Shown here: piece by piece, positions 2,715 through 31,544 of the stretch
How positions within the stretch are numbered: position 1 is the stretch's first letter
How the letters are laid out: each line of letters starts with the position of its first letter
DNA from: an uncultured Candidatus Saccharibacteria bacterium
GTDB taxonomy: Bacteria; Patescibacteriota; Minisyncoccia; Minisyncoccales; Staskawiczbacteraceae
Direction of reading: 5' to 3'
DNA length: 31,544 bases
NCBI GenBank assembly: GCA_964650025.1
Contig: CAZYSZ010000002.1
Span: 1 to 31,544 of the forward strand
Position numbers and translations under genes: made by a program
The notes under the pieces: generated by a model
Database searches by the model: none
The model's input: the letters and a program-made list of their open reading frames with translations, nothing else
What the model was told of the DNA's origin: nothing

Positions 2715-2747
2715 TACTGTAACAAAATTGTCAGCCCAATAAAAGAC

Positions 2748-2813
2748 TTGACGAATAGATTTAGGATATGTATACTTGAAATAAGAATCCGCTCATAACC
2801 CTGCAAAAGGAGG
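2748..2813 (+). promoter_or_regulatory. Sigma70 promoter and SD of an accessory cassette
   Basis: TTGACG (2748)-17 nt-TATACT (2771); AAGGAGG at 2807-2813 before ATG 2818. Confidence 0.75.
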
Positions 2814-2817
2814 CCTT

Positions 2818-3303
2818 ATGCCTAATGCTAGTGAACTTCAGCGGGAACAAGAATCCTTGTCTAATGGAAAAAACTTGATTGGCATCTTGATCTGGTTTGA
2901 GTTTCGTTTTACTGGTCGCCAGATTGTCATTCAACGACAACTGGGTAATCCAAACGATCCGTGGTGGATGTTGGGTGGCGAAATAGACATTCTGCCCAAT
3001 GAGCCAGCGCCTCGTGCTATCAAGCGGAAACTAAAACAAGATTTTGGTTTGGAAATTGACATTTGGTCCATTTCTCAAGATCCAATCCACCAATGCTTGC
3101 ACTCTTGGTGTGAAGGCAGCCTGCCAGCCACAACCGATATATTTTTGGTCAACGTCAATGACAAGGAGTTGGCCATAATATATCGAGTGCTGACTAATCG
3201 TCGGTGCGAGGTCGTAGCTCCTCACGCAGTTAACGTACCTCGAGATGAGCAATATCAACCCGCTCTAAGAGATTGCGCCAGTAAACTTTTTTGGCGCCAC
3301 TAA
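2818..3303 (+). CDS. Nudix-fold-like protein with a degenerate Nudix box
   Basis: WWMLGGEIDILPNEPAPRAIKRKLKQDFGLEI follows the Nudix-box spacing but lacks the REUxEE glutamates; has its own promoter, SD and terminator. Confidence 0.6.
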   Translation: MPNASELQREQESLSNGKNLIGILIWFEFRFTGRQIVIQRQLGNPNDPWWMLGGEIDILPNEPAPRAIKRKLKQDFGLEIDIWSISQDPIHQCLHSWCEGSLPATTDIFLVNVNDKELAIIYRVLTNRRCEVVAPHAVNVPRDEQYQPALRDCASKLFWRH

Positions 3304-3307
3304 TAAC

Positions 3308-3345
3308 AAAAAGCCCACGACGCAACCGCGACGTGGGCATTTTTT
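3308..3345. terminator. Intrinsic terminator of the Nudix-like cassette
   Basis: aaaaa-gcccacg...cgtgggc-atttttt. Confidence 0.75.
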
Positions 3346-3421
3346 ATTCAGAAAAAAATCTATAACGAGTTCTAGGAAAACAAATCTTGATGCAATAACC
3401 CCACAAGTTCGCGCCAGGCGA

Positions 3422-3563
3422 GCCGGTGATGGGAAAAGTAACTCACGCAGGAGAAAAAGCATGGTTTTTCTTGAGTCGCGACTCAAGAAAATTTTTCACC
3501 GAGGTAGTAGGGTGCAAAATCCGGCTGGGGATTTTGACACCCGGTACTTTTCCCATCACTGGC
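3422..3563. other. Multi-stem structured element of unknown class
   Basis: 19-bp closing stem 3422-3440/3545-3563 enclosing a 26-bp perfect palindrome (3466-3491) and a hairpin (3510-3542). Confidence 0.6.
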
Positions 3564-3571
3564 GAAGTACC

Positions 3572-29454: not shown

Positions 29455-29455
29455 A

Positions 29456-30202
29456 TTACTTTTGAGTTAATACTCGGCACCCGTCGCGGGTTATCGCCAC
29501 CGTGTGTTCAAAGTGAGCTGAAAGCGATCCGTCGCGAGTGGTAAAACCGTAACCATCAGTTGATCTTTTTAAGTCATAAGCCCCCATTGTCACCATCGGC
29601 TCAATGCAAATTACCATCCCCTCTTTTAATTCGGTACCCGTGTCGCGCTTGCCAAAATTGGGTACATACGGCCCTTCATGAACCTGCCTGCCAATGCCAT
29701 GGCCATATAAATCGCGCACTATGCCAAATCCTTGGTCTTCAATAAAACGCTGAATGGTGTTACCAATATCACCGGTTTTAACTCCCGCACGCGCCTTTTT
29801 AATACCCAGTCGCAAACCTTTTTCGGTCACTTTTAATAATCGCCTTGCTTCAAAAGAAATTTCGCCAACAGCCACGGTCATGGCCATATCAGTATTAAAA
29901 CCTTTATACAAAACCCCCAAATCCAGCCCAACAATATCGCCATTTTTTAATTTGTAATCCGACGGATACCCATGCACCACATTTTCGTTGACGGAAGCGC
30001 ACAAAGAATAGGGGAAGCCTTGATACCCCTTAAACGCTGGCTTGGCGCCCATAGCCAAAATCAAGGTCTCAGCGGTCATGTCTAATGCTAAGGTGGTAAT
30101 TCCGGGCTTGGCCATATCTGCAATTTGATGCAATACGGTTGCCAGAATTTTCCCACCCTCGACCATGATTTTTATTTCCTCTTCGGTTTTTATAGAAATC
30201 AT
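29456..30202 (-). CDS. map: Methionine aminopeptidase, type I
   Basis: SVNENVVHG, DLG, GHGIG..VHEGP, IEPM and AHFEHT. Confidence 0.97.
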   Translation of the reverse strand: MISIKTEEEIKIMVEGGKILATVLHQIADMAKPGITTLALDMTAETLILAMGAKPAFKGYQGFPYSLCASVNENVVHGYPSDYKLKNGDIVGLDLGVLYKGFNTDMAMTVAVGEISFEARRLLKVTEKGLRLGIKKARAGVKTGDIGNTIQRFIEDQGFGIVRDLYGHGIGRQVHEGPYVPNFGKRDTGTELKEGMVICIEPMVTMGAYDLKRSTDGYGFTTRDGSLSAHFEHTVAITRDGCRVLTQK

Positions 30203-30912
30203 GTTTCCAAGATCTTTAAAATCTGCTCATGCACCTCGGCCACACTTCCTTCCCCATTAATTTTATTGATATTAAACTTGTTGTCTTTAAAGTAATCAAA
30301 GAGTGGCAAAGTTCTTTCTTTATATTGCACCAAGCGGGTTTTAATGGTTTTTGGGTCATCCAATCCTTGACGTTTTACCAACCTTGATCCATCTATCGGA
30401 CACAAAGTCAATATTTCCGTTTCTTTATTATGCAAGATAGAGTGACGCATCAATTCGCAGATTTTGCGTTTGGAATTTCGCAACGCCGTGGTCTCACCTG
30501 AAATTTCAAGCAACATAATTTTGATATTTTTTTTGCCAAACAGTTTTTCCAACAACGGCATTTCTTTTTTGGCTTCATACACAGTACGCGGGGAACCCGA
30601 CATCATGAGGCTCTCCCCATCATCAAAGATACGCTGGATTTCACGCATAATTAACATGGTGGCAAACGGCGGGCTGGTTAGAATTCCCTTTTTCCAATTA
30701 TCCATTTCCACCAGCACATCAAAGCGCTCGCCAAAACATTCAATGAATCTTTCCGGGGAATCTGCCGAAAGTTTTTCAAACTTTTTAAATTCCCGTTCAA
30801 TAATTTTACTGCTCTCAAGCGAAAACAACCCGAATTTTTCGGTTAACAGCTCCGACTGCGTCCCTTTCCCCGCCCCCGGCGGCCCAAATAAAATAATAAC
30901 TTGCTTTGCCAT
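30199..30912 (-). CDS. adk: Adenylate kinase family protein (start revised to MAKQ)
   Basis: P-loop GPPGAGKGTQ, GSPRT, LID region, DD...RL..Y; overlaps the map start (ATGA) as in the canonical adk-map order. Confidence 0.9.
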   Translation of the reverse strand: MAKQVIILFGPPGAGKGTQSELLTEKFGLFSLESSKIIEREFKKFEKLSADSPERFIECFGERFDVLVEMDNWKKGILTSPPFATMLIMREIQRIFDDGESLMMSGSPRTVYEAKKEMPLLEKLFGKKNIKIMLLEISGETTALRNSKRKICELMRHSILHNKETEILTLCPIDGSRLVKRQGLDDPKTIKTRLVQYKERTLPLFDYFKDNKFNINKINGEGSVAEVHEQILKILET

Positions 30913-30920
30913 ATGTCTCA

Positions 30921-30983
30921 AAACTTAAAGCTTGAAACTTGAAGCTTTTTTAAAAAAGTTTAAAATTTTAGGATTTAAGTTTA
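30921..30983. repeat. Periodic hairpin element in the predicted adk leader
   Basis: aaactta aagcttg aaacttg aagcttt ... aagttta aaatttt aggattt aagttt. Confidence 0.75.
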
Positions 30984-30997
30984 GTAATTACAGGCTC

Positions 30998-31057
30998 ATT
31001 CTACCAAAGTTGATAAGTCCAGTAAATATTGACATTTAGTATTATGTATGCAATAAT
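30998..31057. promoter_or_regulatory. Back-to-back divergent promoters (adk and accessory gene)
   Basis: Minus: TTTACT (31026-31021)-17-TAGAAT (31003-30998) with extended TG. Plus: TTGACA (31029)-17-AATAAT (31052). Confidence 0.55.
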
Positions 31058-31150
31058 GTGATTTAACGATCGCTCCTTGAAAACCAAAAACTTAACTGCT
31101 TATAGTGATAATTTCCATTTCCAACCACCTTTTTACAAGGAGTCCTTGCA

Positions 31151-31544
31151 ATGCGACATTTCATGAAGCGCTTTTTTCGGGCTTTGATTGTCAGTCTGGT
31201 TGTTTTGTTGGTGGCGTGCCTCCCGGCCATTGTGGCCTGGCGGGTAGAGGAATCCCGCTTTAGGTCTTTCCGGAACGTTGCTGGCTCGTTCGAAAAAATC
31301 GAGAAAGGAAGGGGGAAGATAATTAACTTGCTTCAGGAGCTAGCTCTTACCGAGGACCTTGAGGCGTTAAAAAAAGATCATGAAAAATTCAGCAAGCTAA
31401 GAAACGTGGTTGAAACAATCACAGAATCCTACGTAACACAAGAGGAGGTGCTAGGAGATATCTTTTCTGACGACGCATTTATCGATCGCTACCTGCGTCA
31501 AGGAACAAAAACCAACGTGGAATTTTACCTTAATTTGGGCTTTT
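31151..31544 (+). CDS. Hypothetical protein with an N-terminal signal/TM helix, truncated by the window end; not in the ORF track
   Basis: Hand translation MRHFMKRFFRALIVSLVVLLVACLPAIVAWRVEE..., open to the end; SD AAGGAG upstream. Confidence 0.75.
   Translation, partial: MRHFMKRFFRALIVSLVVLLVACLPAIVAWRVEESRFRSFRNVAGSFEKIEKGRGKIINLLQELALTEDLEALKKDHEKFSKLRNVVETITESYVTQEEVLGDIFSDDAFIDRYLRQGTKTNVEFYLNLGF

Follow-up and report, generated by a model that had tools for sequence, protein, structure and literature searches.

How can new genes enter the most conserved gene strings of a tiny genome, and how might both halves of an interrupted string stay expressed? The question is raised by a 31,544-nucleotide (nt) stretch of DNA from an uncultured Candidatus Saccharibacteria bacterium, here called the window, which is contig C2 of a 720-kb, 87-contig, 41% GC assembly (genome label G000). 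Its minus strand carries core genes, and its plus strand carries small accessory units, U1 to U4, at junctions that we call slots A (gatC|mreB1), B (holB|mreB2), C (murA|U3) and D (secY|adk). A preliminary description had read the units as portable promoter–gene–terminator cassettes, acquired by a cassette-like route without an integron array and placed at the boundaries of operons. Comparison with related genomes led us to a modified picture, to which we give a probability of about 0.65: the plus-strand units would be accessory genes that vary between lineages and occupy insertion slots. This bears on the Candidate Phyla Radiation (CPR), where genomes are tiny and little is known of how new genes are gained and expressed.

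Each of U1, U2, U3 and U4 has a TTGACA-type −35 box, a 17-nt spacer and a −10 box, followed by an AAGGAG-type motif 6–9 nt before the start codon (Table 1). All the elements that the preliminary description had named for these units, a sigma70-like promoter and a strong Shine–Dalgarno (SD)-like motif, were found in place. Terminator-type hairpins were read at the ends of U1, U2 and U3, so that candidate terminators close all three complete units, again as described.

Syntenic regions were taken from congeneric species with usable contigs (labelled G001 etc.); 16 congeners cover each junction, and the species compared share about 70–77% core DNA identity. Core gene order was kept across the congeners examined, that is, the same conserved flanks recur in many genomes. 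Synteny bore out the expectation of empty sites and differing cargo: the same sites were empty in some congeners and held unrelated open reading frames (ORFs) in others. Across the 17 species slot A measured 16–1626 nt, being empty or near-empty in G006 and G008 and nearly so in G011 and G013, and slot B measured 58–1520 nt, with empty or near-empty states in G012, G018, G001 and G014. Slot D was empty in G011 and G008, where secY abuts adk (3 nt and 57 nt apart, respectively), and differed in content in G010, G006 and G017. Beyond the family, the mreB1–gatC gap was 8–44 nt in six of seven other families of the order and the mreB2–holB gap 8–62 nt in all six, and an uninterrupted string, murA-mreB2-holB-frr-rseP-aaRS-mreB1-gatC-gatA (aaRS, aminoacyl-tRNA synthetase), runs through both junctions there. 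Because the flanks are contiguous in outgroups, the units are insertions and the slots derived. Here the preliminary description does not hold: the units cut formerly continuous strings and so created operon boundaries, instead of settling between existing operons. When empty and occupied sites were compared, the insertion was found to take the place of the whole spacer; neither terminal inverted repeats nor a target duplication was found, and the two ends of the insert were not repeats of one another in either orientation. Empty states fell among occupied ones on a concatenated-protein tree; each site was thus more probably gained once, early on, and lost about three times, though gain may also have happened repeatedly.

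What stays constant at the slots is a short non-coding module. At occupied slots A and B of the congeners, a 46-nt pattern (ATTnTAnCAAAAtT, 7–8 nt, CAATAAAAGAnTTGACA, 17 nt, TAnnAT) almost always adjoins the core gene start. Read on the minus strand, its ATTnTAnCAAAAtT part is an extended −10 element, TGnTAnAAT, and its plus face has the consensus AATAAAAGAnTTGACA, 17-nt spacer, TAnnAT. The two elements lie 25–26 nt apart, which, judged from sequence, is the layout of a sigma-70-type divergent pair. At 7 of 12 occupied slot-A sites the extended −10 ends 5–7 nt before the gatC ATG, so that a leaderless mRNA would result; in slot A of the window a family D repeat arm stands between the two. The module of slot D has a weaker A-tract and recurs in the same layout at secY|adk of G010, G006 and G017, and slot C, with its palindromic pair of −35 boxes, differs from the type of slots A, B and D.

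From the relatives' 17 modules alone we made a weight matrix, which scored U2 at 44.4 bits, the best match in the genome, and U1 at 34.8 bits. A genome scan, as the preliminary description had suggested, gave nine strong copies in G000 with scores over 18 bits; a Markov control sequence twice as long as the genome gave one. Each of the nine stands between genes, facing the start of a core gene (among them gatC, the holB operon, eno, lysS and murG) head-to-head, with a small ORF or candidate ORF behind it that is SD-led in most cases. In its exact form the core, AATAAAAGA[C/G]TTGACA, was found 16 times among 26 genomes of the genus and not once in 20 of other genera and families. As a class, promoter-like matches were no more frequent in the window than chance predicts (32 against 33.1); despite this, U2 and U1 were among the top-scoring matches, and both are conserved in relatives. 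Rfam held no family for the leaders.

The preliminary description had further stressed an extended promoter context common to U1 and U2. Its 16-mer, CAATAAAAGAnTTGAC, does occur at these two places only in the 720-kb assembly, with one close variant on contig C1. As a sign of portability it fails: the shared context is the consensus of a genus-specific divergent promoter pair that is conserved at each site, in up to 17 congeners, and the module remains there while the ORF behind it changes. Module identity between U1 and U2 is 0.57, against 0.52–0.53 for any module pair, and so no higher than elsewhere and no mark of a recent common origin of two cassettes. Homogenisation of modules within a genome was considered and dropped, the within-genome mean (0.549, four pairs) not differing significantly from those of the other classes of pairs (0.534 and 0.515). 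RpoA (19152-19946, 264 amino acids (aa)) matched only the N-terminal and insert domains in Pfam and lacks the C-terminal domain of the alpha subunit, so that the A-tract upstream of the module −35 is unlikely to act as a classical UP element.

The cargo, in turn, proved highly variable. In an all-against-all BLASTP comparison the ORFs directly behind the module were unrelated between species and comprised membrane peptides, a receiver domain and soluble orphans; slot A of G011 holds a degenerate module and a terminator without an ORF. U1 matched itself alone among 5.8e9 proteins, had no homologue at its site in 16 congeners and was absent from 24 of 25 genomes of the genus, the remaining one giving a weak match. 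U2, a small family with no assigned function, patchy across the CPR and with residues invariant across lineages, is shared at slot B with G013 only; in G033, G007 and G011 its homologues sit at the clpB|htrA boundary. The bicistronic U3 is likewise patchy among congeners (NUDIX in three, DUF218 in four, 30–59% identity). Vertical conservation of the genes at these positions, which would have told against acquisition, was thus not what we found. The idea of cassette-like acquisition stands in so far as the units are accessory, inserted and variable, and falls in so far as the leader stays at its site and no recombinase route is visible.

These data also bear on a simpler account, in which each slot received one ancestral gene that descended vertically and diverged or decayed in each species, with neither replacement nor horizontal input. 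Modules are indeed conserved at their sites, same-site pairs being slightly more alike than different-site pairs (p = 0.019); U2 is common to G000 and G013 at slot B and decays in the latter through an in-frame TAG; the G011 remnant shows that deletion happens; and the species compared are distant. We nevertheless consider vertical descent alone distinctly unlikely, since the cargo of one site spans unrelated folds and sizes (a NUDIX-like protein of 161 aa, a receiver domain, membrane peptides of 31–75 aa), U2 homologues are found at another boundary in three congeners as well as elsewhere in the CPR, and SD-led genes are GC-richer than core genes throughout the genus. The G013 copy of U2 (G013:C4:11118-11366) has an N-run near its in-frame TAG, and is either a decaying copy or an assembly problem.

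Non-coding sequence other than the module also recurs between non-orthologous slots, namely terminators and 3′ structured repeats. The U1 terminator is 92.7% identical over 41 nt to a slot-B terminator of G016. A three-way-junction repeat, the Y element, follows it in the window, and Y-like elements are similarly placed in slots A and B of nine or more congeners; G010 has two copies with 98.6% identity. The stems of the Y element consist almost wholly of Watson–Crick pairs, folding energy and G-U counts favour neither strand (p = 0.36), and Rfam gave no matching family. In relatives Y is preceded by an X repeat, a variable hairpin flanked by the arms CCAGTTGCAG and CTGCAACTGG; the window has no X.

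Could these repeats be recombination sites, used by an integron-like site-specific recombinase that moves the cassettes? The conserved promoter followed by variable ORFs would suit such a route, as would imperfect palindromic X/Y elements 3′ of many units, shared by non-orthologous slots and up to 98.6% identical within one genome, and Watson–Crick stems are expected of a DNA-level signal. We hold this route to be highly improbable. Pfam found no recombinase in the window, and the sole PF00589 gene of the assembly is on another contig (C3:9878-10414). No cassette array was seen, each unit being solo with its own promoter and terminator; U2 and U3 are followed by neither X nor Y, Y following U1 only; and contigs of three metagenome runs showed no excision joint or cassette-less allele, the joints that were seen being repeat-mediated (family D arms). 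Nor was there an attC-like imperfect palindrome, the 3′ ends of U1, U2 and U3 sharing terminator-type hairpins only. The earlier report of no integrase, attC or target-site duplication was thus confirmed on search. The units resemble integron cassettes in having a conserved promoter before variable small ORFs, many of unknown function. They differ in that IntI, attI, attC and arrays are lacking and that the units are solo, dispersed and each terminated. Three defining features of integrons were looked for and none was found, so the slots are not an integron; nor are they a recognisable transposon. Correia elements and the REP and BIME sequences (repetitive extragenic palindromic and bacterial interspersed mosaic elements) are dispersed short non-coding repeats that supply promoters or terminators at many intergenic sites. 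The module is like them in being short, conserved, non-coding and recurrent between genes; unlike them, it has no terminal inverted repeats or target duplication around it, and its roughly nine copies per genome always accompany a core-gene start.

We propose instead that an insertion slot would have three parts: a promoter module, compact and bidirectional; a small gene, or two, preceded by a 35–95-nt leader and an AAGGAG-type motif; and an intrinsic terminator that works in both directions and often has structured repeats behind it. This terminator would end the upstream core transcript, the minus face of the module (extended −10 TGnTAnAAT) would restart the downstream core genes, often leaderless in congeners, and the plus face would express the cargo. 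Both halves of a split operon would then stay expressed, the slot bringing a terminator for the upstream half and a promoter for the downstream half. The predicted promoters and terminators are presumably active. The slot architecture was probably copied to several sites early in the genus, and cargo would since have been exchanged, for the most part, when DNA that had been taken up recombined with the slot at its conserved flanks, module and repeats, no dedicated recombinase being needed. The repeats and the highly conserved flanking genes would provide homology for replacing the DNA between them. The AAGGAG motif, if G000 shares the 16S tail of its congeners, would either mark imports from SD-using donors or work otherwise than by classical pairing.

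Minimal mobile elements, or genomic islets, are known from naturally competent bacteria and were described in Neisseria; conserved flanks enclose differing whole-gene content without mobility genes, and exchange is thought to proceed by homologous recombination in the flanks. The slots likewise hold different genes or none between conserved flanks, without mobility genes, and islets exchanged in this manner may be their nearest analogue. Unlike islets, the slots lie inside formerly contiguous operons and come with a conserved bidirectional promoter module and a bidirectional terminator, and the comparison made here is between species, not strains.

The SD-like motif itself turned out to follow the same division between core and variable genes. 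None of the 26 minus-strand core genes of the window has one, in line with the preliminary description, which had seen no clear SD before the flanking core genes. Across G000, 67 of 736 ORFs (~9%) carry AGGAG, GGAGG or AAGGA within 20 nt of the start, against a background of 1.9%. The start of GGAG peaks sharply at −11/−10, where 46 of 721 genes have it, background positions having at most three and a reverse-complement control being flat. SD-led genes are GC-richer than the others (0.464 against 0.409, p = 8e-19), in the comparison of composition that the preliminary description had proposed, and this shift recurs in the genus, the family and outgroups. For the conservation of SD-led ORFs, start codons were chosen without regard to the motif: in the syntenic loci of the 17 species, 30 of 34 SD-led ORFs were found in at most three other species, compared with 112 of 364 non-SD ORFs (odds ratio 16.9, p = 5e-11; odds ratio 13 without G000), the genomes being related, so that the p-values overstate the support. 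Twenty further SD-led genes of G000 comprised 13 without a Pfam family, the remainder being accessory enzymes or helix-turn-helix proteins.

The sharp placement of GGAG relative to start codons speaks to another alternative, that non-coding RNA, divergent or antisense, is the main product of the plus-strand promoters and that most of the small ORFs are chance frames. Several relatives have ORFs of at most 60 aa, or none, behind the module (including slot D of G017), U1 is an orphan, and GC-richer DNA favours stop-free frames. Set against the positioned motif, the recognised NUDIX, DUF218, Clp_N, epimerase and receiver domains, the invariant residues of the U2 family across lineages and the terminators that closely follow the ORFs, these points leave the RNA account the least probable of those we considered.

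Fourteen congeners, G008 among them, have an assembled 16S rRNA 3′ end, and in every one the tail is GGATCATTTTTTTAAA, without CCUCC; the canonical tail was not found anywhere in five genomes, and CCTCC was missing from 37 of 38 16S tails across 30 families of the order. Loss of the anti-SD sequence explains the SD-less core genes and makes a puzzle of the AAGGAG motif of the accessory genes. If G000 shares its congeners' tail, the motif could not act by classical pairing. A leaderless signature is also present: TGnTAnnnT starts at −15 in 24 genes of G000, and TAnnnT starts at −12 in 67, compared with about 25 at background positions. PEGA, a gene conserved in every congener, has the look of a leaderless one, and in several species TGCTAGnnT is retained some 6 nt ahead of the ATG. 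Loss of the anti-SD in a subgroup of Parcubacteria has been reported (Tsurumaki et al. 2022, PMC9297842), and leaderless 'group C' genomes were defined with GeneMarkS-2 (PMC6028130); the present lineage shares with these a tail without CCUCC, an SD-less core and an extended −10 6–7 nt before many starts. It departs from them in that about 9% of its genes, mostly species-variable ones, still form a class with GGAG at a sharply defined position; a literature search found anti-SD loss reported and no report of such a class.

Two readings of the motif stand at roughly even odds. Either it is a relic of import from SD-using, GC-richer donors, or it is functional in this lineage. The GC shift of SD-led genes in the genus, the family and outgroups is consistent with a relic, and SD-led His_Phos of G000 is 45–53% identical to congener copies without the motif. 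Also for the relic, SD-led ORFs are clumped in outgroups without an anti-SD, making up 10 of the 30 ORFs of one 20-kb stretch (G056:C1:300000-319999), and such clumps may be imported islands. Three leaders suggest a functional motif: deeply diverged congeners retain GGAG before ClpN, before the epimerase and before the first gene of U3, in the last case even though that gene is NUDIX or DUF218 according to species. CsrA was considered as a reader of the GGA motif and rejected: SD-like-led ORFs also occur in outgroups without CsrA (38 of 419, against 21 in a control window, clumped), and in sister genera that have CsrA they are near background (3 of 154). In a second outgroup clump 6 of 25 ORFs are SD-led (G067:C9:200000-219999), other stretches having 0–2 each. 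A CsrA homologue lies at G000:C5:7916-8068 (89 bits); of 27 genomes of the family, 25 have such a gene, and a search of 18 other families of the order gave none.

What appears to go beyond known kinds is the combination of operon-splitting placement, a two-way chassis of promoter and terminator, and SD-like leaders restricted to flexible genes. A bolder version would see here a genus-specific chassis that can be inserted into essential operons without polar damage, serves at several sites as a landing pad for swapped cargo and allows GGAG-dependent initiation without an anti-SD; we consider it rather doubtful. If it were true, the flexible genome would have a translation channel separate from that of the leaderless or coupled core genes. 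In either form, the slots offer a testable architecture by which accessory genes could enter the most conserved strings, even secY–adk, with both halves staying expressed, and the resident promoter module can be told apart from the changing cargo. An SD-like motif confined to variable genes in an anti-SD-less lineage bears on how leadered mRNAs are translated there, and suggests that SD motifs might serve as a marker of imported genes.

Several points weigh against insertion slots with exchanged cargo. All comparisons were made between species and no recent event was caught, so that replacement is not fully separable from rapid divergence plus loss; an exact-protein look-up for strain-level alleles found nothing, and the three metagenome runs show occupied alleles only, in contigs, which hide rare variants. 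Many of the relatives' cargo ORFs have 31–100 aa and no homologues, and some of them may not be genes. Copies of the module show no grouping by genome and little by site, so that their common descent, as opposed to convergence on a constrained divergent-promoter design, is not proven. Finally, the 16S 3′ end of G000 itself is not assembled, and the loss of its anti-SD is read from congeners.

Table 1. Positions of slots, units and neighbouring features in the window
Feature	Position	Strand	Remarks
Slot A module	2716-2776		minus face for gatC: extended −10 TGTTACAGT (reverse complement of 2716-2724); plus face for U1: CAATAAAAGAC, then the U1 promoter
U1 promoter	−35 TTGACG 2748-2753; −10 TATACT 2771-2776	+	17-nt spacer
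U1 SD-like motif	2802-2809	+	AAAGGAGG
U1 ORF	ATG 2818, stop 3303	+	161 aa; species-specific
U1 terminator	3311-3345	both	hairpin and T-run; predicted to close U1 and the upstream aaRS–mreB1 transcript
Y element	3422-3563		three-way-junction repeat; between U1 terminator and mreB1 stop codon
hyp299	8832-9731	−	core strand, between slot B module and holB; no SD-like motif; overlaps holB start by 8 nt
Slot B module	9792-9852		minus face: extended −10 TGTTAAGAT (reverse complement); plus face: CAATAAAAGAG, then the U2 promoter
U2 promoter	−35 TTGACA 9824-9829; −10 TATACT 9847-9852	+	17-nt spacer
U2 SD-like motif	9883-9889	+	TAAGGAG
U2 ORF	ATG 9896, stop 10189	+	97 aa; ATG corrected from 9897
U2 terminator	10206-10238		
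Second GC hairpin	10294-10320		palindromic, T-runs on both strands; predicted to end the mreB2 transcript
Slot C promoters	12865-12926		back-to-back, common palindrome TGTCAAATATTTGACA; minus face TTGACA, 17-nt spacer, TAGTAT, towards murA; plus face TTGACA, 17-nt spacer, TAGGGT, towards U3
U3 promoter	−35 at 12898; extended −10 ending 12926	+	extended −10 TGATAGGGT
U3 first gene, NUDIX	12993-13520	+	weak TTGGAGA; Pfam
U3 internal hairpin	13529-13562	+	strong; between NUDIX and DUF218
U3 second gene, DUF218	13587-14339	+	AAAGGAGA; Pfam
U3 terminator	14395-14435	+	
NAD-dependent epimerase	14434-15156	−	SD-led (CAAGGAG); accessory, among congeners found only in G007
Leaderless signature, hyp225	15186-15210		
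hyp225-PEGA-ClpN unit	15208-17640	+	genes 15208-17596; terminator 17603-17640
Leaderless signature, PEGA	15940-15955		
ClpN	17114-17596	+	TAGGAGG; third gene of its unit; no own promoter; patchy in congeners
Slot D module	30998-31057		minus face for adk: TGGTAGAAT (reverse complement); 25-nt spacer before plus face
U4 promoter	−35 TTGACA 31029-31034; −10 AATAAT 31052-31057	+	17-nt spacer
U4 ORF	ATG 31151, to 31543 (window end)	+	CAAGGAG; N-terminal hydrophobic segment; cut by contig end
Core genes (Pfam)		−	gatA, gatC, two mreB paralogues, class-II aaRS, rseP, frr, holB
Further core genes (Pfam)		−	murA-type, rpsI-rplM, alpha-operon ribosomal genes, infA, alaS, tpiA, map, adk
Periodic-repeat hairpins	673-791, 2257-2375, 4651-4782, 6012-6111, 11385-11476, 25929-26076		

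Individual genes of the window were examined further. U1 had no Pfam match at default settings, NUDIX appearing only at E = 0.2; the Atlas clusters nearest to it were NUDIX (score 0.96), and U1 is probably a diverged NUDIX fold. A single-sequence AlphaFold2 model was unusable for this purpose (predicted local distance difference test score 47.7), and no pairwise similarity was found between U1 and the first U3 gene. Neither PHROGs nor PADLOC showed a phage or defence signal for the cargo. Six species share the leader that precedes the first U3 gene (12955-12992: TTGACAA, then CGCCCA, then GGAGA), the gene behind it being NUDIX in G000, G006 and G003 and DUF218 in G008, G013 and G007. The Clp_N gene has, as first described, an SD-like motif and a terminator and no promoter of its own, and is actually the third gene of a hyp225-PEGA-ClpN unit; the SD-led epimerase is an additional gene that the preliminary description had overlooked. 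hyp299, for which Pfam gave no match (ART-PolyVal only at E = 2) and the syntenic loci of 16 congeners no homologue, is species-specific. Spacers between co-directional core genes of the window are filled by long hairpins of short periodic repeats, and the empty slot-B junctions of G001 and G014 hold hairpins of the same kind.

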